DNA from: a virus
Taxonomy: Duplodnaviria > Caudoviricetes
Virus record (IMG/VR): IMGVR_UViG_3300027653_000018
Location: 1 to 46,748 of that record
Length of the DNA: 46,748 nucleotides
Direction: 5' to 3' (one strand)
The notes beneath the pieces are model-generated. The model did no database searches. It was not told where the DNA came from and saw nothing but the letters and a program-made list of their open reading frames with translations. The translations under genes and the position numbers were made by a program. Below, piece after piece: positions 8,364 to 46,748 of the stretch (position 1 is its first letter; every line of letters begins with the position of its first letter).

Positions 8364-8420
8364 TACTTTCTGGAAAATTATTTTTATTTCAAAACTACTT
8401 TTTATGCAATTCCCGACAAA

Positions 8421-8551
8421 AAACCTACATTTTTAAAGTTTTTATTTTAGTTTGTTGATTATCAATAGGTTAAAATAAAAATAAAAAACTTTTTCAGAAA
8501 ATAGTACCCCCTATCAAAAATGATTTTCTTTTTCTAAAAGGTAATATAGGA
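8421..8551. repeat. ~130-bp non-coding repeat, copy 1
   Basis: Colinear with 32984..33113 (…aaaataaaaaactttt…ccccctat.aaaaatgatttt…aaaaggtaatatagg). Confidence 0.8.
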
Positions 8552-8648
8552 ACTTTTATAATATTCTTATCCTTATATGTAATTCGCTATAAGTCAATAA
8601 AATACCTTATTGCAATAAAAAAAGGCGTTTTCGCTAAAAAACACCTCT

Positions 8649-9533: not shown

Positions 9534-9926
9534 ATGCGATACATTTTTATATTTATATTATTATTTCTATCATCTTGCGACCCTGTTCGTAGGCATGCAA
9601 ATCTTGTTGAACGTTATCCTTACGTTCACAAAAATGATACTGTAATAATCAAAGATACAATACAAATAATAAAAGAAAGCGTTTTAATCGACACTTTCAC
9701 TGCAATTGAATTTGATACTTTTGTTGTTGAAAAAGAAAAAGCAAAGGTTAAATTAGTAAGAGTAAATGACACAATATTTGTTGATGCGGAATGTTTAGAG
9801 GATACATTTTATGTTGAAAAAGAAAAAATAATTATTGAAAAATATTCCGTAAAGCCAAAGAAAAGATATTGGTATTTATTATTAATTGGCGTTACTTTAG
9901 TTATTTTTATCTGGATAAGAAAATAA
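9534..9926 (+). CDS. Lipoprotein, u-spanin-like, copy 2; the only clear plus-strand gene
   Basis: MRYIFIFILLFLSSC lipobox plus C-terminal TM helix (RYWYLLLIGVTLVIFIWIRK). Confidence 0.75.
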   Translation: MRYIFIFILLFLSSCDPVRRHANLVERYPYVHKNDTVIIKDTIQIIKESVLIDTFTAIEFDTFVVEKEKAKVKLVRVNDTIFVDAECLEDTFYVEKEKIIIEKYSVKPKKRYWYLLLIGVTLVIFIWIRK

Positions 9927-9962: not shown

Positions 9963-10001
9963 TATATCCGCTACTTTATAGCGGGTATAAGTAAGTTAGG
10001 T
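9963..10001. repeat. Palindromic element (TATAyCCGCTA-N5-TAGCGGGTATA-AGTAA-GTT) abutting a cassette start, copy 1 of 3
   Basis: Also at 26541 and 27928. Confidence 0.85.
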
Positions 10002-10007
10002 GCAATG

Positions 10008-10235
10008 CTATTGAGACCGCAACCATTCCGTTAGCTTTTTCTTTCTTTCATAACTTTTGACTGTTCCTATTTGGTAATTAAACGCTCCCATTCGTTGATA
10101 GCATTCGCCAAAAGGGTTGGCAAAAGCAATAAACTTACCGTCTTTTACAACCCACAGATTACCACGAAAAGAATATACACCATCTTTGCGGTCTTTTGCT
10201 TTCTCGTGTAAGATATTTGTTTCTTCAATTGTCAT
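10008..10235 (-). CDS. Cassette-borne hypothetical protein
   Basis: Likely start MTIEETN at 10235; lies within cassette 9995-10388. Confidence 0.65.
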   Translation of the reverse strand: MTIEETNILHEKAKDRKDGVYSFRGNLWVVKDGKFIAFANPFGECYQRMGAFNYQIGTVKSYERKKKLTEWLRSQ

Positions 10236-10260
10236 CTTTTCAAACTTTGTGAGAAGCACT

Positions 10261-10394
10261 GCACCTAACAAGGTATTGCCAAAAGCAGGACATTCTCGGT
10301 TAATTAATAATTTGTAATTCTATTGGGTATTTTTGCAAGGTTGAAATTTTCTACTTTTAAATCCCTGCCTTCGGCAATACCCGAACCGTTGTAG
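10261..10394 (+). repeat. attC-like site
   Basis: gcacctAAC-aaggtattgccaaaagcagg ... cctgccttcggcaatacc-cgaacc-GTTgtag. Confidence 0.85.
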
Positions 10395-10398
10395 GCAA

Positions 10399-10617
10399 TT
10401 AGTTTGTGACTTCTTTCTTGCATTCAAAGCAGAAGTATGTTTTATCGTCATCATATCCGTACCAAGTTAAATTAGGGTTTCCACAGTCACAAACTAACTG
10501 TTCGCTTTGCCCCACAACATTCAATAAAAGCAATATTTGCTTCGTGGCTTCTTGTAGGGTTATCTTATTAATTTCAAAGTCCATCAGGACACATTTAATT
10601 TTATTTTCTGTTGTCAT
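10399..10617 (-). CDS. Cassette-borne small zinc-ribbon protein
   Basis: CxC...CxxC; N-terminal half encoded inside the attC-like loop. Confidence 0.7.
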   Translation of the reverse strand: MTTENKIKCVLMDFEINKITLQEATKQILLLLNVVGQSEQLVCDCGNPNLTWYGYDDDKTYFCFECKKEVTN

Positions 10618-10642
10618 ACTGCTTTTATTTTTTACGCTATGT
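10507..10642 (+). repeat. attC-like site with degenerate GCT core, overlapping an ORF
   Basis: ttgccccacAAC..aataaaagca ... tgcttttatt..GCTatgtg. Confidence 0.65.
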
Positions 10643-10894
10643 GTAATGCTGTCTAATTGCTTCTATTTCACTTTCGTTTAAACTCGTTGTTTTAATTCTT
10701 TTGAGGTGGTTTATTGCCTCTATGTAATGGTTTGCATTTTCATACATCTTTTCTATAATTCTTTTTACACAATCAGCTTCAATGTTATTTCCTTTTTCTA
10801 ATTGTCTTTTTTCGTTTCTTTTTTGAAATTCTATGTCTTTAAGCAAAGAATTATACCTAACTTCTAGCCTTTCTATCAAAATTAAATCTTGCAT
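10637..10894 (-). CDS. Cassette-borne hypothetical coiled-coil protein
   Basis: 85 aa; stop codon overlaps the cassette core site. Confidence 0.7.
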   Translation of the reverse strand: MQDLILIERLEVRYNSLLKDIEFQKRNEKRQLEKGNNIEADCVKRIIEKMYENANHYIEAINHLKRIKTTSLNESEIEAIRQHYT

Positions 10895-10925
10895 TTTTAT
10901 AAGTTTTGTGGCTTAAACCCGCACA

Positions 10926-11021
10926 ACACATAACAACGTGTATAGCAAATAGCCTATTAATATTCAGTTCTTAATTCGGCGGTTCGTGCTTCGGCTACTT
11001 GCCATACACAAACCGTTAGGC
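10926..11021 (+). repeat. attC-like site
   Basis: acacatAAC-aacgtgtatagcaaatagcc ... ggctacttgccatacac-aaacc-GTTaggc. Confidence 0.85.
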
Positions 11022-11477
11022 AATATTCCAAACATCGTCCCAATTTGAACAACCTCCTGAAATATCCACTTTGGGGAATTGGTTAAAAAACCATTCATCA
11101 AAAATTTCAGAATGGATATTGCACTGGCAGGATGGCGAGCATTCACTAATATCATATCCATTGTCTTCGCAGTATTCTTCGAAATCTTCGTGCCTGTCAA
11201 ACATCCCAAATTCTTCTATTAAATAGTCTTCTATCTCTTCCGCTAATTCGTGCATATCAATAACAGAAACCGAACTATCTACTCTAATTAAATATCTTAA
11301 ACCGATTCTACAATGTTCATTAAATCCTATATAAATTAACTTATTTCCATCCCCAAATACTTTATCTACAAGAATTGAATTTGGAAATTTTTCAATAAAC
11401 TTTTCATAATGCATATCGCCTAACATAGTATTGCCGTCATTGTGGCTTAACTGCTTATTTTCAACTGTATTTTTCAT
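11016..11477 (-). CDS. Cassette-borne acidic hypothetical protein
   Basis: 153 aa; TAA stop within GTTA; start inside the attC loop. Confidence 0.7.
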   Translation of the reverse strand: MKNTVENKQLSHNDGNTMLGDMHYEKFIEKFPNSILVDKVFGDGNKLIYIGFNEHCRIGLRYLIRVDSSVSVIDMHELAEEIEDYLIEEFGMFDRHEDFEEYCEDNGYDISECSPSCQCNIHSEIFDEWFFNQFPKVDISGGCSNWDDVWNIA

Positions 11478-11531
11478 ATTTAACTTTAGTTTTTATTTCC
11501 GCAACGAACGGCAATACTCCGACCGTTATCT
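11413..11531 (+). repeat. attC-like site
   Basis: atatcgcctAAC-atagtattgccgt ... acggcaatact-ccgacc-GTTatct. Confidence 0.85.
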
Positions 11532-11604
11532 GCAACCTTAGCGACACCCTACCATTCATAGATACCGCCTCGTTAGACAATTTTTCGTTGCTCATAATTT
11601 TTTG

Positions 11605-12130: not shown

Positions 12131-12154
12131 TCTTTTTGCAAATTATTTTAAAAA

Positions 12155-12191
12155 GCCTACTCTGTTAAAGGATTTTCGGCATCCTCCATTT
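12155..12191 (-). repeat. Conserved intergenic motif GGAGGATGCCGAAAATCC-N6-AGAGTAGGC, copy 1
   Basis: 22-bp and 9-bp exact blocks shared with 34036..34071. Confidence 0.8.
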
Positions 12192-20866: not shown

Positions 20867-21508
20867 CTACGGTACTGCGCACTTGAATATATGTCTTGGG
20901 TTCCAATAGCTAGGTCTCAATCCATAAGGTATACCTGTTTTACAGGGCACTGAACGCATCAATTTATTGTTATGTCCACGAATACTCCAATCCTCTGGCC
21001 ATTCTTTTACTTCCCATTTCAACACCTGACCCCAGCCATCACCAGTGTTCTTACCTATAGCTGTACTGAATTGCAATAGCTCCATAATCTTATCTGGAAC
21101 CCCTACACAATACCACTCTACATACTCCGCAAAACGGTAATACATTTTGATGTGGTATGCTTTATGTTTACCTCTCTGCACATCTATTTTTTTAACCTTA
21201 TCGATAAGATAGTCAGAATGCCTAAGCCAATCTCCTGACTTTACTTTAAAACTACTGTCCTCTACCATTTTTTCTGGCCATTGGGCAAAACTGCAATGGT
21301 AAAACCAAGTGTCATCTTTACGCCCTCCCTTCTTTATAGGCAACAGTGGCACAGTAGCTTCTCTCACTGTACTTTCACCGGGTTTACTAATAACCTCCTC
21401 ACCTAAATGCCTTCGCACATGATGATAATATAAAATAGCATCTAAGGGTAGGTGCTTGTCCGATATTATTGGCGTTTGTAAATACGCTCTTATTCTTAAT
21501 TGTTTCAT
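20867..21508 (-). CDS. csf3: Type IV CRISPR-associated Csf3 (Cas5-like RAMP)
   Basis: LRIRAYLQTPI..PLDAIL N-terminus; Gly loop IGKNTGDGWGQV; RPSYW tail. Confidence 0.8.
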   Translation of the reverse strand: MKQLRIRAYLQTPIISDKHLPLDAILYYHHVRRHLGEEVISKPGESTVREATVPLLPIKKGGRKDDTWFYHCSFAQWPEKMVEDSSFKVKSGDWLRHSDYLIDKVKKIDVQRGKHKAYHIKMYYRFAEYVEWYCVGVPDKIMELLQFSTAIGKNTGDGWGQVLKWEVKEWPEDWSIRGHNNKLMRSVPCKTGIPYGLRPSYWNPRHIFKCAVP

Positions 21509-21509
21509 T

Positions 21510-22178
21510 TTAGTTAGATATTTCTGGAAATTTTAATAATAGTTTTTGGTATGCGGTAAAATCCCTTGCTTTTAAATCGCTTAAAAATTGTTCTCTAATT
21601 CCAAAATCTTCTCTAGGAATTCGTGAAGCTGTTCTGCTTTTTATCCCATTTATTTTATAACTATTTAGCATAGGTAAACTATTGGCGAATGCATAAGTGG
21701 CTACATCTTTATCAGTCCATTCAGCTAGTGGACTAATTCTTACTAATCCTGCTTTATTCTTATAGAATAACCCATGCGTCTTTAATGTAATTCTTCTTGC
21801 TGTAGACTCCTGCATCCTCAATCCAACAAAAAAAGCATCATATTCTTTACCTACATCATATCTATCTTTTCTTTTGTCAGATAAAGAAATTCGGCACATC
21901 TCAATCTGCTCTAGGTTTATATTACCCCATTGACTTATAACTTCATCATAATTATCTATATGCTCCGTTTCCCCCTCCCACCTAATAAACCTCACTTTTA
22001 TATTTGGTCTAATTTCTCGAACAAGGTGCAACATCACCGCACTGTCTTTTCCAAATGAACAAGCCACATAGGGTTTGTCTACTTTATCTAAAGCCCACCT
22101 AATAAAGCCCCTTGTTTTCTCCACAAGGGCTTTATATGGTTTTAACTGTGCATAAATCATTGCCGTTTTTCTATCCAT
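21510..22178 (-). CDS. cysH: CysH-like PAPS-reductase-family protein of the type IV-B module
   Basis: SFGKDS PP-loop, VGLRMQES..R, PLAEWTDKDV. Confidence 0.85.
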   Translation of the reverse strand: MDRKTAMIYAQLKPYKALVEKTRGFIRWALDKVDKPYVACSFGKDSAVMLHLVREIRPNIKVRFIRWEGETEHIDNYDEVISQWGNINLEQIEMCRISLSDKRKDRYDVGKEYDAFFVGLRMQESTARRITLKTHGLFYKNKAGLVRISPLAEWTDKDVATYAFANSLPMLNSYKINGIKSRTASRIPREDFGIREQFLSDLKARDFTAYQKLLLKFPEISN

Positions 22179-23089
22179 TATTCAAACAAAGATTTTGATA
22201 TTCCTTTTTCAAAATAATCACTTACATCTTTTTTAGCGCCTTTATAAATATCCATATACTTCACAAAATCTTCATTCTGGAAATCAAGCTCGCTATCTAT
22301 CACCTTTGTTTCTTTTATCTCCAACTTTATTGCTCCATGCCCTACACGCCCATTGCCTCCCACCTGACTGTTTTGTTCTACCCATGTGTTTAAGGTTGAA
22401 AGAAAAGCACCTGTTTCTACATCATTTGTATCTTTAAGACAAATACGCCAATAGAACTTTGTACCCGCAACAATAGTTTCAGTGTCGTACTTCATCTGAA
22501 CAGGATTAGCTTTTTTTGCAGTATCATCATCATCTTGCAAAAATTCTTTCTTGACTTCATCTTTTGCATCATCCTTGCGGGTGTACATTTCAAGTTGGCA
22601 ATATTCCCAAATACTTTTGGGCTCTTCTGTATAAACATTGTGATATTGCTCTGGTATTAAGTGTAACGTTTCTTTAGCGATTGGAATTAATTTACCTATT
22701 TCAACCTTACCTGGTATAATAACATTGCCCACGCTACCTCCTAAAACGCTAAGCATAGGCATATCTTTTCTCATCTGCCTAACCTTCTCTATATTTATAC
22801 CGCTAGAACCTTTACTCTCTAAGCTTCCACCTGTAAATAGCAAATTAAAACTATCCGCATCTACCTTTATTTTTGTTCCATCTTGTTTAGATAAAATTTC
22901 GATGGCAGCAATATCTCTTAATTTTCCACGTACACTATTACCTGAAATAACAGGTATTTCAATTGGTTTCCCGTTTTTTTGTATAAATTTCTCTCTGCGT
23001 AATTGAGTTACTGTACCGTTCTTTTCTCCTCCATTGTGCGTTATTGAAGATAAGGCAGTTACTATGCCTTCTAAAATGTATGTTTTCAT
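22178..23089 (-). CDS. csf2: Type IV CRISPR-associated Csf2 (Cas7-like backbone)
   Basis: ALSSITHNG, IPVISGNSVRGKLRD, LFTGGSL, VGGNGRVGHG Gly loop. Confidence 0.88.
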   Translation of the reverse strand: MKTYILEGIVTALSSITHNGGEKNGTVTQLRREKFIQKNGKPIEIPVISGNSVRGKLRDIAAIEILSKQDGTKIKVDADSFNLLFTGGSLESKGSSGINIEKVRQMRKDMPMLSVLGGSVGNVIIPGKVEIGKLIPIAKETLHLIPEQYHNVYTEEPKSIWEYCQLEMYTRKDDAKDEVKKEFLQDDDDTAKKANPVQMKYDTETIVAGTKFYWRICLKDTNDVETGAFLSTLNTWVEQNSQVGGNGRVGHGAIKLEIKETKVIDSELDFQNEDFVKYMDIYKGAKKDVSDYFEKGISKSLFE

Positions 23090-23091
23090 TT

Positions 23092-23460
23092 TTAATCGTT
23101 TTTATTGTTTTCAATTTCTTTAAAATCTTCTTTTCTCTGTTGGTTTCGTAACCTAACAAGCATCATCATATAAGTGCTTTCTGTTCGCAACCAATTCAAA
23201 ATCTCCTCATCTTGATTTGTGTCTACTACTTTCTTAATATCTTTGACATACTGCGCCTGTAAATCTAAAGGAATACGTCTTTGGAATAATGATAAAAAAC
23301 CTTTTAGGCTACCTGTGTATGATGCGGATTTTATAGCATTTTCAAAATGTTCCCAAATATCACGGGGGTATTTCATTTTATAGTCCTCGTGAATACTTCG
23401 CCATAAACCCCATAACAACAGGTCGGCTACTTCTTCTTGTGATAATTGTTTGTTCAACAT
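23092..23460 (-). CDS. cas11: Type IV-B small subunit (Cas11-like)
   Basis: 122 aa helical protein between csf1 and csf2; WEHFENAIKSA. Confidence 0.6.
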   Translation of the reverse strand: MLNKQLSQEEVADLLLWGLWRSIHEDYKMKYPRDIWEHFENAIKSASYTGSLKGFLSLFQRRIPLDLQAQYVKDIKKVVDTNQDEEILNWLRTESTYMMMLVRLRNQQRKEDFKEIENNKND

Positions 23461-23468
23461 AATTGTAT

Positions 23469-24149
23469 TTATTTATTGTTAGAAAATAGCATCCAGCTTG
23501 CAAAATCAAACATTGGTTTGCCCCGATGCTCTTTAATTTTATCTTCGTTTATCCTCCAAATTTCAAAGCCGTTTTTGGCGATAAAATTTGGATTATAGTC
23601 TCCGTTAATGATAGATGTCTGTGTAAATCCTGCATGTAATAAGTTTTGCATGGTACTGTGTAAAAATTGCAAATATTCTATATCTGGATAAATAAACAAT
23701 TCATCTAGTTGCCACATACCAATTTTGTGTTTAAATAAGATGTGTTTTTGTCCAGTATCCGTAAGACATACCAATTCAGCGCCATTACATATCATATCGT
23801 ATATTTCTTTCTTGTTTGCTTTTGTCATACAATACCATTCTCCATTATATATTATATGGGAGTAGGTTCTGAATCTTTGCGGTTTTTCTTTTTTTACTTT
23901 ATTCTGAATTTCTGCGCTGGATTCATCAAAGCAAAATAGCGCTTCATTGCTAATAATATCACCAGGTAGTAGGTATGCATGGTCTGTAAATGTTGGTCTT
24001 ACCCATTTTTTAAAGCTAACACCATAAGCTTCGTTGCCTGTTATTCTGCACATCCCCAATTCCTTACCATAAATTGGTCTTGATGATAAGCTATATATTA
24101 ATTGACAAGGGTGTATAGCATGTAATATATCATTTGTACTTTTGTTCAT
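23469..24149 (-). CDS. csf1: Type IV Csf1 (Cas8-like large subunit)
   Basis: CRITG...PTFTD..L, QKH motif; first gene of the operon. Confidence 0.65.
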   Translation of the reverse strand: MNKSTNDILHAIHPCQLIYSLSSRPIYGKELGMCRITGNEAYGVSFKKWVRPTFTDHAYLLPGDIISNEALFCFDESSAEIQNKVKKEKPQRFRTYSHIIYNGEWYCMTKANKKEIYDMICNGAELVCLTDTGQKHILFKHKIGMWQLDELFIYPDIEYLQFLHSTMQNLLHAGFTQTSIINGDYNPNFIAKNGFEIWRINEDKIKEHRGKPMFDFASWMLFSNNK

Positions 24150-25842: not shown

Positions 25843-26179
25843 GCACTAATTTATTTTTTAAAAGTTCTTTATTAAAATATGTATCTCCTTCCGAATTATT
25901 ATCTATATAAGACACATGCCATTCATTTATGTAATCTTTATATTTCTCATATGTTTTAGCTCCACCGATTACCCAATCTACATCTAAAATAAATCCATTT
26001 CTTTTATCTAAAATAACTTCCCTGTCTTCTAAAATTGGTAAGTTTACAAACGTATTAAAACCTGCTAATAATCTTGGTTTTCTTCCATTTACCTTTTCTG
26101 TAGTTAATTTCCTGAATAGCTTTAAATCCTCTGGACAGTTCCATATTAATTTGTTATTTACTGCTACTATTGCTTTCAT
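25823..26179 (-). CDS. folA: Dihydrofolate reductase, compact and divergent
   Basis: IVAVN..LIWNCPEDLKLFRKLT, WVIGGAKTY, GDTYF. Confidence 0.75.
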   Translation of the reverse strand: MKAIVAVNNKLIWNCPEDLKLFRKLTTEKVNGRKPRLLAGFNTFVNLPILEDREVILDKRNGFILDVDWVIGGAKTYEKYKDYINEWHVSYIDNNSEGDTYFNKELLKNKLVHEYYFR

Positions 26180-26197
26180 TTTATTTACATTTCGTTG

Positions 26198-26527
26198 TTA
26201 TATGCCATTTAAATCAATCATTTCTAAACATGAATATTCAGCTAAACCACTTGGCGTATATTCTTGAATATATAAAGTTCTATTGCTTATATGTAGATTT
26301 AAATCATCTATTTTTACATTGTGTTTTAACGCTAATTCCGAAAAAAAACGGCTTATAACACTACCTATACGATTTTCTTTAACCTCACTTATCACTATAT
26401 CTAAAGCTTCTGTCAGTTTTTTAGGCTCGTGAATCATATCCTCTCTTTTTCCAAGCCTCCACTCCTGATGATATTCAAGTATTTCTATTGCTGTTTGTAA
26501 TTCCATTTTTTTATTTATTTTCCCCAT
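26198..26527 (-). CDS. Cassette-borne hypothetical protein (intact copy)
   Basis: Stop within GTTA; crosses the inverse core at ..GSVISRF. Confidence 0.7.
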   Translation of the reverse strand: MGKINKKMELQTAIEILEYHQEWRLGKREDMIHEPKKLTEALDIVISEVKENRIGSVISRFFSELALKHNVKIDDLNLHISNRTLYIQEYTPSGLAEYSCLEMIDLNGI

Positions 26528-26579
26528 TTCATATTTATTGTATACCCGCTATAAAGTAGCGGGTATAAGTAAGTTGTGT
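26350..26579 (+). repeat. attC-like site whose right arm is the palindromic element (copy 2, loop inverted)
   Basis: ggcttatAAC-actacctatac ... gtataagtaa-GTTgtgt. Confidence 0.6.
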
Positions 26580-26595
26580 GCAATACCCCACCGCA

Positions 26596-27261
26596 CTAAA
26601 ACGGCAGTTTATTTTTATTATATTTAAAGTCATATTTCGGCTTCTTTTTTGGCAAATAATCACGCCAATCAAAATGCCTAAAAACAAATATCGCATTGCC
26701 AATTATTACAAGAGGTGTTCTCTTATGTGTAGGACTTCCAGTTCGCCCCAATTCCTTCAAAAATGTTTTCCTGTCAAATAATAAGAACAACCATAACGCA
26801 CACTCTTTGCCAAGTCTATATTTTGGGGCTTTATGGTGTATGTAGCCTTCAATAATTGGCAATGCTTCACCATCAAATAATGGCTCATACTTGTACATTC
26901 TTTCAACAGGACTATGGAAGTACCATTTACCAAGTTTGTATTTATCAAGCCTTGTCCAAAATTCTTCATACACACCAGTTCCTAAACAACTCCAACAAGT
27001 TTCAGGCATTTTCCAATCGCTCTTAAAAACACCTGTACTATCGCAACTCCAACAGTCTTTTTTTATGTGCTGAATATCAGTGCCTACTTTTGTTGCATAC
27101 TTTTTTAATAGGTGTGTTTTTAACTCATAGAACTCTGATTTTGCCAAAAAAGGAATATCCCGATTAGCATTGTGCAGTAGCCAACCCACAAAGTACTGCA
27201 CACAACAACGTATAAAAAACAGTGGGCTGTATCGTGCTGATTTTAAAGTGTTTTGTTTCAT
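26596..27261 (-). CDS. Cassette-borne protein with a DnaJ-like zinc finger
   Basis: CWSCDSTG and CWSCLGTG. Confidence 0.7.
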   Translation of the reverse strand: MKQNTLKSARYSPLFFIRCCVQYFVGWLLHNANRDIPFLAKSEFYELKTHLLKKYATKVGTDIQHIKKDCWSCDSTGVFKSDWKMPETCWSCLGTGVYEEFWTRLDKYKLGKWYFHSPVERMYKYEPLFDGEALPIIEGYIHHKAPKYRLGKECALWLFLLFDRKTFLKELGRTGSPTHKRTPLVIIGNAIFVFRHFDWRDYLPKKKPKYDFKYNKNKLPF

Positions 27262-27333
27262 ATCTTATTTAGTTGTGGTGGACAGGTAAGTGCTTCTATC
27301 TGCCACCGATTTTTTATACTCGGAACGTTGTAG
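27197..27333 (+). repeat. attC-like site
   Basis: tgcacacAAC-aacgtataaaaaacagtgg ... ccaccgattttttatac-tcggaac-GTTgtag. Confidence 0.85.
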
Positions 27334-27337
27334 GCAA

Positions 27338-27586
27338 TTAGTTTGCCTGCTTAGTGCATTTACAAGGCTTCCCACCATACTCATCAATGTACACTTCCAA
27401 TCCTTGGCAATTAGGGCAAACTAACTGTTCGCTTTGCCCTACAACAACAGGTTGGCAAAATAATTTTACTTGCTCCTGCGCATATTCTTCCATTGCTTTC
27501 AACACTGCATCGTGTAACGGAGAGCCTTCATTTATATTAAGCGTTCTCTTTGTAGCTTCTTTCAATATTTCTTCCTTTGTTTTCAT
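27338..27586 (-). CDS. Cassette-borne small zinc-ribbon protein
   Basis: VVGQSEQLVC junction followed by CPNC...CKC. Confidence 0.7.
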   Translation of the reverse strand: MKTKEEILKEATKRTLNINEGSPLHDAVLKAMEEYAQEQVKLFCQPVVVGQSEQLVCPNCQGLEVYIDEYGGKPCKCTKQAN

Positions 27587-27615
27587 AATTTATTATAATT
27601 AAATTGTAATTAAAA

Positions 27616-27702
27616 ATTGCCCGTGAGAATCGAACTCACCTCATCCTGCCGTAAATTGTAGTGCGCATCTACAAAGTGCATTATCCCGCCGATTAGGGCA
27701 AC
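27616..27702 (-). tRNA. Degenerate tRNA-like element
   Basis: Acceptor GTTGCCC/GGGCAAT, T-arm GTGAG-TTCGATT-CTCAC, stem TTGTAG-ATGCGCA-CTACAA; weak D arm, no CCA. Confidence 0.5.
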
Positions 27703-27719
27703 TTTTCATATACTTAACA

Positions 27720-27914
27720 TTAGCCGCAAGCCTGATTACACTTCCGATAAAACTGTTCTAATCCCCAACTTATAATTGCATCTTCACATTCGATAAACCA
27801 AAGACCGTCTTTCCAACTGAAATAAACGTGCATACAAGTTCTATTGTAATAGGCTAATTTATCGCCGACCTTTACATTTGGTCTTTGAAATAAATATCTA
27901 AATAGTTTTTTCAT
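27720..27914 (-). CDS. Cassette-borne hypothetical protein
   Basis: 64 aa; starts just after palindromic element copy 3. Confidence 0.6.
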   Translation of the reverse strand: MKKLFRYLFQRPNVKVGDKLAYYNRTCMHVYFSWKDGLWFIECEDAIISWGLEQFYRKCNQACG

Positions 27915-27927
27915 TTCATATTTATTG

Positions 27928-27966
27928 TATACCCGCTACTTTATAGCGGGTATAAGTAAGTTAGCA
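27928..27966. repeat. Palindromic element, copy 3
   Basis: tatacccgcta-cttta-tagcgggtata-agtaa-GTTagca. Confidence 0.85.
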
Positions 27967-27971
27967 GAAAC

Positions 27972-28268
27972 CTAAAAAACATCGCTAAACCTTTTTTCAT
28001 AACCATACTTTTTAGTGAGTTTGGTAATTAGTTCATTTGTATATTTGTGAATTTCTGATTTAGGATAACAAGTAGGTTGATGAACAACGCCAGTTATAAC
28101 ATCAATTAAATATGTATCGTAAACGTGCCCTTCGCCTAAAAAATATCCTATTTCATAACCAAAATGACTATCCCAAACAACACGGTCGTTGAAGGAAAAG
28201 GCATCTGCTAACAATGTATAACCGTCAGGCTTAGTTTCCGTTTCTTTTGAAAGTTTTTGCTCATTCAT
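27972..28268 (-). CDS. Cassette-borne hypothetical protein
   Basis: N-terminus MNEQKLSKETETKPDGYTLLAD encoded by the attC loop and arm. Confidence 0.7.
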   Translation of the reverse strand: MNEQKLSKETETKPDGYTLLADAFSFNDRVVWDSHFGYEIGYFLGEGHVYDTYLIDVITGVVHQPTCYPKSEIHKYTNELITKLTKKYGYEKRFSDVF

Positions 28269-28336
28269 AATTTCTATATTTTTAATTAAGTTAATCTTTT
28301 ATTCACGCCCGAACGGTTATACTCGGCACGTTAGTT
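28204..28336 (+). repeat. attC-like site
   Basis: tctgctAAC-aatgtataaccgt ... acggttatac-tcggcac-GTTagtt. Confidence 0.85.
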
Positions 28337-28623
28337 GCAATTAGTTTGTTGCCACATTTCGGGCAAATAAGTAACCAAGCGTCATTTACAACAGGTGTTT
28401 TATCAGCACTTTCGTTATGTGTGCCAATCCACCCACATTTACAACATTCCCACTTTGCATTTACATCTACCTGTGCTATACCCAATATTTTTAACTTATG
28501 TTCGTAGTATCTTTCAGCAAAGTCTAACATTGCTGTTTTGTTAAAACCATTTTCGGGTAGTTCTTTTGGTGTCCACCATTCTTCAAAATATTCTTCTACT
28601 GTCATCCTGTTTAAGTTTATCAT
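28303..28623 (-). CDS. Cassette-borne zinc-ribbon protein
   Basis: CCKCGW...CPKCG. Confidence 0.65.
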   Translation of the reverse strand: MINLNRMTVEEYFEEWWTPKELPENGFNKTAMLDFAERYYEHKLKILGIAQVDVNAKWECCKCGWIGTHNESADKTPVVNDAWLLICPKCGNKLIATNVPSITVRA

Positions 28624-28665
28624 TATTAAATCGCCCTACACATACACGCAAAACGTTGTAGGCAA

Positions 28666-28956
28666 TTATTTTTTGACTTCTTTCTTGCATTCAAAGCAGA
28701 AGTATGTTTTATCGTCATCATATCCGTACCAAGTTAAATTAGGTTTTCCACATCCACAAACTAACTGTCCGCTTCGCCCTTCAACAGCAGGTATAGTTAA
28801 TTTTTTCAAATCAGCTACAACAGCGCAAATTGCTTGAGCATAGTGGGAGTTTTTAAGCCTATCTTCTTTGGTGTACATAAGTGGGTCTTCACACACTCTT
28901 CTGTGTAAGGCAATTTTCTCATCCCACTTTTCAATCAATTTCTGTAATTCATTCAT
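28666..28956 (-). CDS. Cassette-borne protein sharing its C-terminal module with 10399..10617
   Basis: ..QLVC.CG.PNLTWYGYDDDKTYFCFECKKEV. Confidence 0.7.
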   Translation of the reverse strand: MNELQKLIEKWDEKIALHRRVCEDPLMYTKEDRLKNSHYAQAICAVVADLKKLTIPAVEGRSGQLVCGCGKPNLTWYGYDDDKTYFCFECKKEVKK

Positions 28957-29005
28957 AATTTATCTATTTAAATCAAAAACTAACCATACCTGCGACACGT
29001 TATAT
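28775..29005 (+). repeat. attC-like site with a long coding loop
   Basis: cgcccttcAAC-agcaggtatagttaattttt ... aaaaactaaccatacctgc-gacac-GTTatat. Confidence 0.8.
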
Positions 29006-29309
29006 GCCATTTAAATCAATCATTTCTAAACATGAATATTCAGCTAAACCACTTGGCGTATATTCTTGAATATATAAAGTTTTATTGCTTATATGTAGAT
29101 TTAAATCATCTATTTTTACATTGTGTTTTAACGCTAATTCCGAAAAAAAAACGGCTTATAACACTACCTATACGATTTTCTTTAACCTCACTTATCACTA
29201 CATCTAAAGCCTCTGTTAATTTTTTAGGCTCGTGAATCATATCCTCTCTTTTTCCAAGCCTCCATTCCTGATGATATTCAAGTATTTCTATTGCTGTTTG
29301 TAATTCCAT
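29000..29309 (-). pseudogene. Frameshifted duplicate of the 26198..26527 cassette gene
   Basis: A9 at 29143-29151 versus A8 at 26341-26348; truncated to 67 aa. Confidence 0.75.
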
Positions 29310-29354
29310 TTTTTAGTTTTTATTAATTATTTCTGATATACGGATATCATTCAA

Positions 29355-29606: not shown

Positions 29607-29637
29607 TTTATTATATTTTTAAATTTTCATTTAAAAA

Positions 29638-29722
29638 TGCGGGGGCTTCTTCCTCTCTGGAACGGTCAGCCTGTCCGTCAAGGTTGCGACCCTTGATATG
29701 ATACCGCTTTAAACGTCCCGCA
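29638..29722 (-). ncRNA. Candidate small structured RNA
   Basis: GC-rich island closed by TGCGGG/CCCGCA with internal hairpins. Confidence 0.4.
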
Positions 29723-29753
29723 CTCTTCATATGCTTTTCCGTTGGTGGCAATA

Positions 29754-30050: not shown

Positions 30051-30065
30051 AATTTATTTAATTTA

Positions 30066-30160
30066 AAAAATAAGGCAGGTATTAAGTTTATAATGTGGTC
30101 TCCTGCTAGCAAGGAATTTACCGTGTCCACTTTGCCACCTCTTTCGAGTGCCTTATTTTT
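30066..30160 (-). ncRNA. Candidate small structured RNA or terminator
   Basis: 12-bp closing stem aaaaataaggca/tgccttattttt; CTC-GAAA-GAG hairpin. Confidence 0.35.
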
Positions 30161-30244
30161 CTTAATCAAATTCGCCTTTCTCAATAATATTTATCGTAAT
30201 GTATAATATTGATAACACTGCAATCAATAATATTAATATTCCTA

Positions 30245-32949: not shown

Positions 32950-32981
32950 CAAATTTATAACTATTATTCTTATTCTCCAAA
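32950..32981 (-). promoter_or_regulatory. Bacteroidetes-type promoter upstream of the primase
   Basis: TTTG-N20-TAAATTTG. Confidence 0.6.
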
Positions 32982-32983
32982 GA

Positions 32984-33113
32984 AAACTTACATTTTCAAG
33001 GTTTTTATTTTAATTCATTCATTTTCAACAACTTACAATAAAAATAAAAAACTTTTCTGGAAAAAATAGCCCCCTATTAAAAATGATTTTTCTTTTTAAA
33101 AAGGTAATATAGG
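32984..33113. repeat. ~130-bp non-coding repeat, copy 2
   Basis: Homologous to 8421..8551. Confidence 0.8.
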
Positions 33114-33154
33114 GAGCTACATAATATTTTAATAATAATATATATTTACTTGAT

Positions 33155-34014: not shown

Positions 34015-34035
34015 CTTTTTTATTTTTAAAACAAT

Positions 34036-34071
34036 GCCTACTCTTTTCTGGATTTTCGGCATCCTCCATTT
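34036..34071 (-). repeat. Conserved intergenic motif, copy 2
   Basis: Matches 12155..12191. Confidence 0.8.
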
Positions 34072-34705
34072 ATTTATTCTTATTTATTACTAACTCTATA
34101 TACTCTTTGTAATATTCATTACAAATCTTATACTTCTCTTTTATCTCCTCCTCTATATCTAAATCCCTATCAATCCAACTGCTGAACGTATATCTACTGC
34201 TTTCTGGAATATGATTAACTTGATGCAAATCTAAATCATCCCATGCAGTCAAAAGGCTTTCGGGCGTGGATAAAAGAACATCGCAAACTTTTCCTTTCTC
34301 CAAATTAAATGACATCATATATCCTCTAATTTGCCAATCATATCCCGACTTCTTTACTTTTGCATCCATTTCTTCTTGTGTCCATGCAAAGGTCTTAGCA
34401 TGCCATGCTACTTTCCAATCTATTACTACATCGCCTGTAATCGTATCTGGGTGTCCTGTCAACCACCCTAAATCTCCTCTTTTATCGGACTTCACATAAT
34501 TAGTGAACTCATTCCTATTAACTAAATCTATCGCCTCCTGCTCCAATATTATTCCCTTCTGCATTGGTTTCGTAGATACGTGTTCCCTTATCCCGAATAA
34601 ATCATATATAGCACATTCTTCAATGTATGTCTTATTCGTTTGGGTTAACTTTCCTGATGCACTCATTATCCTGTGCAACTGGCTAACTCTAATCTTTAAT
34701 TCCAT
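34070..34705 (-). CDS. YqaJ/lambda-exonuclease-like protein
   Basis: MQKGIILE, GHPD, IDWK, YDWQIRGYM. Confidence 0.8.
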   Translation of the reverse strand: MELKIRVSQLHRIMSASGKLTQTNKTYIEECAIYDLFGIREHVSTKPMQKGIILEQEAIDLVNRNEFTNYVKSDKRGDLGWLTGHPDTITGDVVIDWKVAWHAKTFAWTQEEMDAKVKKSGYDWQIRGYMMSFNLEKGKVCDVLLSTPESLLTAWDDLDLHQVNHIPESSRYTFSSWIDRDLDIEEEIKEKYKICNEYYKEYIELVINKNK

Positions 34706-35222
34706 CTAAAACCTCCTTTTGCTCTTTAGTTAAATCAAACTTTAATATATCTTCTTTCGTTGTTGCATTATTCTTTAATGCTTCAATTGCCTTTGCAAAG
34801 CGCTCATTTGAAAGTTTTTCTCTTGGTGGTTGTTCTGGATTATTGTTCTCCATGCTATCTATATCTCTACTATCATCTATTGCAAACAATCCATTCAAAG
34901 CGTATTTCCTTGCGTATGAACTCGCACTACCTGTAATTTGTGCATCATCCATACCTTTCTTGGTTAAAGACTCGCGTGCATACGCTTGTACTGATACGCT
35001 TGCTCCATCCTTATTCACTATTGTTGCTACCGCCTTTAGGTAATATCTTTCACCTACAAGCTTAATGCTATCTGTTATTGCAATGTAGCATTCTTCTTCT
35101 TTTAATAAAGGTTTTACAGCTTCCAAAATATCCTCACAACTTCTGTAATGATATTGGCCGTAATCGCTATATTGGCTTTTTGGTACCTTTAACTTATTCT
35201 GAATTCTAATTAACTCTTTCAT
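34689..35222 (-). CDS. erf: ERF-family ssDNA annealing recombinase
   Basis: YRSCEDILEAVKP, QITGSASSYARKYALNGLFAID. Confidence 0.92.
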   Translation of the reverse strand: MKELIRIQNKLKVPKSQYSDYGQYHYRSCEDILEAVKPLLKEEECYIAITDSIKLVGERYYLKAVATIVNKDGASVSVQAYARESLTKKGMDDAQITGSASSYARKYALNGLFAIDDSRDIDSMENNNPEQPPREKLSNERFAKAIEALKNNATTKEDILKFDLTKEQKEVLDGIKD

Positions 35223-36987: not shown

Positions 36988-37593
36988 TTAGACTATATCT
37001 TTTAAAGAATATTCTTCTTTTGCGTACAATTCGTACGATGCAAAAGAACCTTGTCTAAAATCGTCAATGATCCAAAAGTTTTTAGATTCATAGACCTTTC
37101 TTCCGAACACGTCTTTAATCCATTTTTTAGAATCTATTTCAGATTCTAAGGAATCATTTTCGACAACTTCATAATCATTGTGTCCGTCATGCTCGTATTC
37201 CACAACTACTGATTGCCAGTTTGAGCCGTTCCAGAAATTGAAGCCCTTGCAGGTGGAAGCGTGGTAATGTATATCAACACCATCTTCAAGGTCTGCTGAA
37301 GAGTTTAAAGCAGAGAACGTGTTCCCATCGTCGTAATCGCTAATTAGGTCACCGATTACGATTTTTTCATCTTCATCTTCATCTTCAAACTCTTGATATG
37401 CCTTATTTGCAACAGCAAGCGCTTTTTGATTTAATATCTCAATAAAATCGCCTGCGTCTGCTGGCGATACCCCTTGCCCAAAATGATCATAAGTATCACT
37501 TACTCTCATTTCTTCTATCTCTACCGAAATAGCTAAAATAGGGTTAGGATAGTTTTCTGGATCTGTGCTTTTAATAAATGTGTAAGTTTCCAT
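36988..37593 (-). CDS. Highly acidic early protein
   Basis: 201 aa, D/E-rich (EFEDEDEDE); first gene after the tandem promoters. Confidence 0.7.
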   Translation of the reverse strand: METYTFIKSTDPENYPNPILAISVEIEEMRVSDTYDHFGQGVSPADAGDFIEILNQKALAVANKAYQEFEDEDEDEKIVIGDLISDYDDGNTFSALNSSADLEDGVDIHYHASTCKGFNFWNGSNWQSVVVEYEHDGHNDYEVVENDSLESEIDSKKWIKDVFGRKVYESKNFWIIDDFRQGSFASYELYAKEEYSLKDIV

Positions 37594-45820: not shown

Positions 45821-46277
45821 AATCGTCTTTTATTTTCTTTGCGTCCTTCATAACACCTTGTGATGTATTAATTAATTCTTTAAAATAATATCTAAATCCC
45901 TTACCTTTATTCATTATCTGTATCGACCTATCGATTGATGTTAATTCCCTCCATATTAAGAAAAATCCTATTGCCTTAGATATTACATGTTCTATATCTG
46001 TAAATTTACTATAAAATTCACTCAATATAAAACTATCTAATAGGAATAACACAAAGAATATAAATAGATATATGAATATCTTTACAAATAATCCATAGAA
46101 TTTATCCCAACTCCATTTTTCTTTACTATATACCATTCTGATAAATGCAATAATTGTATCTGTAATAACTGCAAAGAATATAGTGATTATCATGTAATAG
46201 CTTGGTGCTATAACAATTGTAATACTCCCAATTATTCCAATTATTGCGGTAATTATATTATCTGAATCTCTTATCAT
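45807..46277 (-). CDS. Putative holin, copy 2
   Basis: Paralog of 308..793 (DTII..F.R...KEKWSW.KF...K). Confidence 0.7.
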   Translation of the reverse strand: MIRDSDNIITAIIGIIGSITIVIAPSYYMIITIFFAVITDTIIAFIRMVYSKEKWSWDKFYGLFVKIFIYLFIFFVLFLLDSFILSEFYSKFTDIEHVISKAIGFFLIWRELTSIDRSIQIMNKGKGFRYYFKELINTSQGVMKDAKKIKDDYDKF

Positions 46278-46748
46278 TTATAAAGTTATTTAAAAAGCAT
46301 ATGTACCTTTCCTTATCTTTAAAGATATTGCAATCTTGTTTGTTTGTGCCAAAAAACGGTTCAATGATTAGCGCTGGTATTGGCGTAAGATTTAAGAAAT
46401 AAAAACCTCTTTCACTTTTGTGTGACGTAAACTTCACTCCTCTAGCTCCTCTAATCTTCATTTCTGGATATTCTTTTATATACGCATCCGCCAATTCTCT
46501 TGCATACCTTTCACCCTTGTTGCTACCACCATACGCAAAGACCTCAAAGCCATTAGCCTCTTCTGTATGATGCCCATTAAAATGTAGCTCGATAACCAAT
46601 TTGTACTGCTTATTTTCTCGCAAAAAATTAGCTAAAGTCTTTTGTCTTTGATAGTAATTTCTAATCGTATGCACATAAACATCTGCATTTAAACCATTAG
46701 CAATATCTCTGTTATAATCCCATTCAGATTGTTTTAAGAATTCTGAAT
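46258..46748 (-). CDS. Amidase endolysin, copy 2 (N-terminus beyond the window end)
   Basis: Near-identical direct repeat of about 1754..2225 with scattered substitutions. Confidence 0.88.
   Translation of the reverse strand, partial: SEFLKQSEWDYNRDIANGLNADVYVHTIRNYYQRQKTLANFLRENKQYKLVIELHFNGHHTEEANGFEVFAYGGSNKGERYARELADAYIKEYPEMKIRGARGVKFTSHKSERGFYFLNLTPIPALIIEPFFGTNKQDCNIFKDKERYICFLNNFINDKRFR

Follow-up and report, generated by a model that had tools for sequence, protein, structure and literature searches.

The window analysed here is a linear phage contig of 46.7 kb, comprising the whole of record G000 (IMG/VR record IMGVR_UViG_3300027653_000018), with a CheckV completeness of 76%. Sixty-seven open reading frames (ORFs) were annotated, the minus strand carrying nearly all genes. 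They include a terminase, a thymidylate synthase, a dihydrofolate reductase (DHFR), a helicase, a BT4734-type primase, a single-stranded DNA-binding protein (SSB) and the annealing protein ERF (34689-35222). Two arrays of gene cassettes, A and B, are found in the window (Table 1). Array B, the subject of this analysis, extends from 26197 to about 29314, the right limit being the end of a real duplication. The array is an orphan and partly decayed; its small gene cassettes, set in a row, are bounded by GTT cores. An earlier note on this DNA had described about eight units in array B and had quoted four pairs of complementary cores. The four pairs are present (Table 1) and eight units were counted, including one without AAC (28330) and one with ATT in place of GTT (27716). 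Two further core pairs are 28655/28785, with 7/10 complementary positions (read from the sequence; the array A twin also has 7), and the pair of the duplicate, 28999/29162, with 9/10.

Table 1. Position and strand of the features of arrays A and B in the window.
Feature	Position	Strand	Remarks
Array A	9963-11580	+	Head 1 (9963-9997); sites 10267-10390, 10932-11017, 11422-11529
Body B1, GTT to AAC	26197-26359	+	Cores 9/10; followed by a left-arm remnant only; starts the duplicated 318-nt segment
ORF B1	26198-26527	-	109 aa; reads in frame through the AAC core; 102-aa relative P0046
Head element 2, attI-like	26541-26575	+	27-nt perfect hairpin, then TATAAGTAA/GTT; 9-nt centre inverted relative to the other two copies
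Body B2	26573-27206	+	Cores 10/10
ORF B2	26596-27261	-	221 aa; two CxxC pairs; start codon within hairpin 27204-27329
Intact attC-like site	27204-27329	+	AAC-3 nt-arm...arm-7 nt-GTT; model R1 52.1 bits, E 2e-8
Body B3	27327-27445	+	Cores 8/10; Zn-ribbon-like C-terminal half; followed by a partnerless left arm
ORF B3	27338-27586	-	82 aa; N-terminal part (27482-27603) joined directly to backbone 30045 in L003
tRNA-like element	27614-27703	-	tRNA-Tyr(GTA) by ARAGORN; overlaps a right-arm remnant ending in ATT at 27716
ORF B4	27720-27914	-	64 aa; between degenerate core 27716 and head 3; piece 27708-27964 is a module in run X4
Head element 3, attI-like	27928-27962	+	
Body B5	27960-28212	+	Cores 9/10; recurs in other loci
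ORF B5	27972-28268	-	98 aa; first 18 codons within hairpin 28210-28332
Intact attC-like site	28210-28332	+	Model R1 58 bits, E 1.4e-9
ORF B6	28303-28623	-	106 aa; two CxxC; unit from GTT 28330 without AAC
Body B7	28655-28785	+	Zn-ribbon half; 91% match to array A
ORF B7	28666-28956	-	96 aa; codons 1-57 fall in the loop of site 28783-29001
Intact long-loop attC-like site	28783-29001	+	Not scored by model R1
Second B1 copy	28999-29314	+	GTT is its exact start; frame shifted by an additional A, leaving a 67-aa ORF

The true length of ORF B1 is probably 102 aa, with the second Met as start. In run X1, the likely source of the phage, the B1 duplicate was collapsed into a contig at 124x, compared with 66-75x across the array, and because of this difference the duplication is regarded as real. 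The homologs of B6 part ways at 28345, which is 15 nt inside the core 28330. The tRNA-Tyr(GTA) call is probably not a normal tRNA: its T arm and acceptor stem are good, its D and anticodon arms are irregular and it has no Rfam match. It is also present as a module in run X4. The Rfam search returned nothing inside array B.

Between AAC and the next GTT, the sites have the layout AAC, 3 nt, arm, loop, arm, 5-7 nt, GTT. Self-complementary cores are weak evidence alone, as 38 pairs matching at 9/10 or better occur across the whole window. In the interval 26191-29000, five such pairs were found compared with a shuffled mean of 1.4 (a count reached in 6/500 shuffles), and the single perfect pair of this interval was equalled in 37/500 shuffles. 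The strong signal comes from the hairpin, which the earlier note had not described: strict sites numbered two in the same interval for 0.024 expected (0/500 shuffles) and one in the other 41.6 kb. A covariance model (R1) built from 32 chromosomal sites, all of Bacteroidota, gave its top five matches in the window at 10260, 11415, 28203, 27197 and 10925, all on the plus strand (E values of the array B sites in Table 1), and gave nothing outside the arrays with E < 0.1. A degenerate form of the site pattern matched 112 viral loci and at least 125 chromosomal loci; the 80 chromosomal loci listed belong to Bacteroidota, bar four Ignavibacteria and one Cloacimonadota. The primase domain, together with the hosts in which the site family occurs, leads us to infer that Bacteroidota are the likely host group of the phage.

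In the 32-site alignment, the two arms form 18 paired columns in register and share no conserved bulge, and double changes are present in 16/18 arm pairs, partly by construction, the sites having been chosen for pairing. A single extra base is found on the arm opposite R''-L'', about 9 nt in, in three of the four window sites shown, and one window site carries an additional extra base far up the R'' arm. Mismatches in the arms, read on the top strand, are mostly A.C rather than G.T (179 vs 7 in viral and 156 vs 4 in bacterial sites). Because of these A.C mismatches, the bottom strand folds better in 110/121 viral and 88/97 bacterial sites, be it coding or not; both sets are biased to one arm family. 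The two cores of the same body match at 8/10 or better in 67/98 viral and 25/30 bacterial cases, compared with 15-16% of mismatched pairs; the across-site control gave 12/98.

The position of array units in other genomes was compared with the cores. An unrelated phage (L019) shares 26572-27340 with the window at 90% identity, that is a GTT, the B2 body, its hairpin and the next GTT, and another locus (L001) shares 28763-29001 at 92%, between other bodies and with the match ending at GTT. The B5 body was found in 20/25 other loci (L257, which is the window itself, is left out of this count); the GTT core lies at the same offset in 15 of them, and the left neighbours differ in 15/15. In a set of 364 viral and metagenome units, in which identical bodies were merged, 19 pairs share a body; the left neighbour differs in 19/19 and the hairpin is kept in 14/19. 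To judge from these shared segments, the mobile unit would consist of a body and its right-hand hairpin. BLASTN of array B against GenBank phages gave no match, and an exact 23-nt B1 probe had 0 matches in viral contigs.

A close relative (L002, L003), with a backbone identity of 95-98%, differs from the window in both arrays. In array A, L002 follows the window up to the head GTT at 9998; different cassettes come next, and the match resumes at 11523. In array B, L003 departs at 25858 into different cassettes, and of the window's array only 27482-27603 is retained, joined to 30045. Runs X2-X4, which represent a small share, were used for junction positions only; among the pieces listed, those in X3 and X4 contigs start at 26573 and end at 29001-29003, and one X4 contig carries three array B modules with other DNA between them. 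Combined, these comparisons bear out one part of the claim that array B is an actively shuffled platform: a shuffled platform is supported, as matches in other phages terminate at GTT cores and gene order is not fixed in a close relative. The word "actively" gained no support, in view of uniform X1 contigs, a contig without a tyrosine recombinase and an array in which about half of the sites are broken. A joint 27964 to 28654 in X1, together with loose ends at 27928 and 28786, was considered as a set of junction variants and rejected, because the loose letters are array A sequence.

All array ORFs in the window are antisense to their sites, an arrangement that we call the mirror form. Among 94 viral sites, the adjoining ORF was antisense in 70 and sense in 3, with none in 14 and an edge in 7, and AAC is crossed by 44 of the 70 antisense ORFs. 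For 128 chromosomal sites the corresponding numbers were 85 sense, 12 antisense, 27 none and 4 edge. ORFs B2, B5 and B7 begin inside their hairpin; the site holds the start codon in 53/121 phage sites, where the better-folding strand is the mRNA. Of the 23 aligned homologs of B2, most lack a leader and begin about 20 residues further on; other leaders are present in a few. In other loci, B5 bodies are combined with at least 8 other arm types after AAC, most of which give an open leader, and the B5 hairpin of the window is found on unrelated bodies in L281 (89%) and L282 (96% over 76 nt). The leader of the Zn-ribbon body is not the same in array A as in array B. A first same-body test comprised only 1 viral and 4 bacterial pairs; among the 19 body-sharing pairs of the larger set, the hairpin was changed in 5, the window B5 taking part in 4 of these. 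With less confidence, we infer that gene bodies sometimes trade hairpin leaders at AAC or close to it. Three mechanisms can be offered for such an exchange: a shift of the crossover to the R'' box, as the available part of PMC2727003 (Bouvier 2009) describes for top-strand recombination in the absence of bulged bases; the action of ERF on 20-35 nt of homology past AAC; or the birth of cassettes with a common site. The A1-site hairpin, shared by 17 bodies in 18 loci and the window, was not taken as proof of swapping because the shared stretch continues for 25-35 nt beyond AAC, as could also result if the cassettes arose with a common site.

Tyrosine recombinases were recovered with a motif filter in 4/116 viral loci (two of them being the same protein) and 7/125 chromosomal loci. 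Array-linked recombinases are 264-276 aa long. Six of them reach 150-218 bits on TIGR02249, for which the cut-off is 265, each matching in two stretches. The recombinase of L093 has 21 residues where IntI4 (2a3v) has 64, about 43 fewer, so that the IntI insertion is missing; in the available part of PMC8138268, this IntI-specific insertion in the catalytic domain is described as essential for integron function. After the sub-cut-off scores and the missing insertion, a host IntI was dropped as the acting enzyme. Viral contigs were also searched by recombinase protein alone, the best 80 of 183 yielding 70 distinct proteins. A mirror-oriented site lies upstream in 52/70 of these loci, and two or more sites are present in 40; downstream, 2 loci have a site on each strand. 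Less than 2 kb of upstream sequence was available in 16 of the 70. In the control, model R1 matched 1/15 helicase-selected loci. A distant relative of the helicase (43%), in L007 (8167-10044), has a mirror-oriented array adjoining it.

The motif TATA-N5-GTT is present within 130 nt of the recombinase start in 49/64 loci, compared with 0/64 on the other strand and 54/3040 control windows. It also follows the recombinase in 5/7 chromosomal loci (by eye), once as TATAAGTAAGTT, and this 12-mer occurs three times in the window, each time behind a 27-nt hairpin. Of these three attI-like head motifs, one heads array A and two lie inside array B, which suggests that array B was assembled from two or three short arrays. 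One of the three copies, 26541-26567, has the 9-nt centre of its hairpin flipped relative to 9963-9989 and 27928-27954. Similar mini-hairpin heads are seen in L022, L024 and the chromosomal locus L206.

We consider it probable that array B is an orphan, partly decayed Bacteroidota integron-like array in the mirror form found in phages, moved by a recombinase supplied in trans. Each cassette spans the interval from a GTT to the following GTT, with the gene on the opposite strand, and a tyrosine recombinase of about 265 residues, supplied in trans, would likely cut cassettes out and insert them. The single-stranded minus strand would fold so that AAC and GTT pair, and the recombinase would cross over at G/TT, releasing body and hairpin as a circle whose two ends pair. 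The head (TATA-N5-GTT) or a further site could receive this circle. With the genes reversed, each gene is preceded by its hairpin; within a single long leftward transcript, this hairpin would often supply the start and first codons. An occasional exchange at or near the AAC core, which is proposed with less confidence, would give a body a new hairpin and leader.

Several observations weigh against this reading. No recombination event has been observed, and neither annotation nor a PF00589 search found a tyrosine recombinase on the contig, which is 76% complete and linear. In array B, 3 of about 7 sites are intact and about half are broken. The X1 contigs cover the array evenly and show no true alternative junction (contigs drop rare variants), and off-core junctions are present at 28345, at 29314 (the right end of the duplication) and at the L003 joins 25858, 27482 and 27603/30045. 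TATA-N5-GTT has 17 matches in the window, on both strands, and because the motif is short the heads are identified by position. The site counts are not independent, because the loci were first found with a pattern of one arm family. A relic, whose units were mobile earlier through the recombinase system and now undergo only deletion and ordinary recombination in this lineage, would account for the contig without recombinase, the places with one arm only (26357, 27443, 27716 and 28630), the frameshifted duplicate and the uniform X1 contigs. In array A, however, the 95-98% identical relative departs from the window exactly at the head GTT; the duplicate, whose first 152 nt are 99% identical, starts exactly at the GTT after an intact hairpin; and the recombinase is carried by hosts of the Bacteroidota phylum. 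For these reasons we regard a relic as unlikely.

The left neighbours at GTT, which share no sequence (15/15; 19/19), also bear on a role of ERF in the exchanges. Here, modules of hairpin plus flank would be conserved linkers and the annealing protein would swap genes by short homology with no site-specific enzyme. The phage encodes ERF, some junctions are off-core and in the A1 and B7 families the shared sequence continues for 20-35 nt beyond AAC, so that short-homology exchange may well explain the exchanges on the AAC side; as an account of the whole array it is improbable, given these neighbours, the covariation of cores within bodies and the linkage of recombinase, head and array in 52/70 loci. 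That the hairpins act in RNA, in processing or translation control of the long transcript, with mobility as a side effect, is very improbable. The phage data would agree with it, the better-folding strand being the mRNA and the start codon lying inside 53/121 sites, but the same strand preference is found in chromosomes, where this strand is mostly non-coding (69 sense and 13 antisense of 97), and two intact sites of array B fold only modestly as RNA (z about -2, 7/200 shuffles). A secondary role of the hairpins in RNA is conceivable. Returning to the integron-like array, a wider proposal is put forward tentatively: the mirror system may be a native integron-like system of Bacteroidota phages, with a minimal recombinase and a recombination hairpin that is the translation start of the gene. 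Without the strand-selecting bulge, crossover would extend to AAC as well and swap N-terminal leaders or whole domains among gene bodies, a natural means of protein shuffling, and arrays would grow by capturing whole head-plus-cassette blocks.

The system is built like an integron and would work like one, yet it is not a member of this class. As in integrons, units are bounded by G/TT, AAC is complementary to the unit's own GTT end and the imperfect hairpin of the bottom strand is favoured. In relatives, the head site adjoins a tyrosine recombinase gene that points away from the array, and the first cassettes at the head differ between relatives; in the window, the attI-like motif stands alone, three times, and L002 diverges at it. 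In contrast to integrons, cassette genes of phages are antisense, the hairpin precedes the gene and is often translated, the central spacer has 3 nt instead of 5-7 nt and the 264-276 aa recombinase lacks the IntI insertion. At its start, the R''-side arm of the sites also lacks a bulged base; in the attC described in the part of PMC2727003 consulted, the R''-L'' arm has extrahelical bases. The available text of IntegronFinder 2.0 gives integrons as rare in Bacteroidota and nearly absent from phages; in the parts of IntegronFinder 2.0 and PMC8618304 consulted, Bacteroidota integrons are present and no such variant is named.

Qi 2023 (PMC9892861) reported integrons or parts of them in 21/10,705 phage genomes and described 17 phage clusters of attC sites lacking integron-integrases (CALINs), including that of Polaribacter phage P12002L. 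As in array B, this Bacteroidota phage has site clusters without integrase, and its attC1 has the AAC-3/6-GTT anatomy between two antisense genes (assigned by eye; unscored by model R1 at E 0.05). Four other plus strand sites are found in P12002L by model R1. In that study the sites were treated as ordinary attC, their odd orientation was ascribed to mosaicism and no separate recombinase was named; attC1 was the one site that IntI1 did not recombine. The published attC2 sequence occurs twice in L283 (P12002L), at about 29177-29240 and 37200-37265, each time before a different cassette start, and it ends CCGTT/GTT, as does the window at 26194. Rather than an attC, this sequence may represent a head site. 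Array B itself is a site cluster in which no integrase was seen, on a 76% complete contig and with non-canonical sites.

According to the available part of PMC13148043, Riemerella anatipestifer takes up a gene with 27 bp and a 140-bp stem-loop without homology. Compared by description, this unit of short 5' flank, gene and attC-like stem-loop of about 140 bp is similar to the cassettes considered here, and the degenerate site pattern matches Riemerella loci. It differs in being chromosomal and in sense orientation, with no enzyme named in that part of the source. Beyond the CALINs of Qi 2023 and the Riemerella observation, no account of the mirror arrangement or its recombinase was found in the literature outside subscription papers, and the mirror system is apparently undescribed in print. 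If the proposal is correct, a site family common to phages and Bacteroidota is missed by standard models and served by an insertion-less recombinase. This would explain the variation of small accessory genes in Bacteroidota phages and possibly also homology-independent gene uptake by Bacteroidota hosts. It makes testable the use of folded single-stranded sites by a tyrosine recombinase without insertion and bulged bases. What the window contributes is the divergence of a close relative from the head GTT on, heads within an array and two-way evidence of leader exchange.

The cargo of array B was described in the earlier note as small and partly Zn-ribbon; CxxC-type motifs are present in 4/7 distinct ORFs. 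Homology between the cassettes of the two arrays, also claimed, is narrower than stated and comprises one body (10388-10518 / 28655-28785, 91%), shared body ends and the 35-nt head element. The anti-defence or host-takeover functions proposed for the cargo gained no support, as array B proteins had no Pfam or PADLOC match and one weak match to an unnamed PHROG; an anti-defence role is a guess. An Atlas search with two array B proteins gave none at 0.9 and a best value of 0.80, which is a lead only. The 25 homologs of B2 that were found are all unnamed.

Elsewhere in the window, a type IV-B-like cas operon at 20867-24149 (minus strand) encodes Csf1/Cas8, Cas11, Csf2/Cas7, a CysH-like phosphoadenosine phosphosulfate (PAPS) reductase and Csf3/Cas5, with no CRISPR array among the repeats found in the window. 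The relative L003 lacks the segment 18900-24148, which also encodes a methylase and a DNA polymerase III beta clamp. Promoter and terminator scans were at chance (20 for 22.9 expected and 2 for 2.1). Two intergenic RNA-like multi-branch folds with long closing stems are present on the minus strand at 29627-29730 and 30064-30162 (z -2.7/-2.8, no Rfam match), and two DUF805b RNA motifs at 12154-12189 and 34035-34069 (minus strand) are above the Rfam gathering score. Near the contig ends, the amidase stretches 1753-2174 and 46276-46697 are 97% identical and the holins differ, and a 203-nt inverted repeat joins 1-203 and 9575-9777; the end repeats possibly reflect strain mixing or end assembly. 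A 62-nt intergenic repeat in four copies (12090, 12617, 37627 and 37718) and a 176-nt repeat in two (8409-8584 and 32972-33147) are perhaps phage promoters or regulatory sites.

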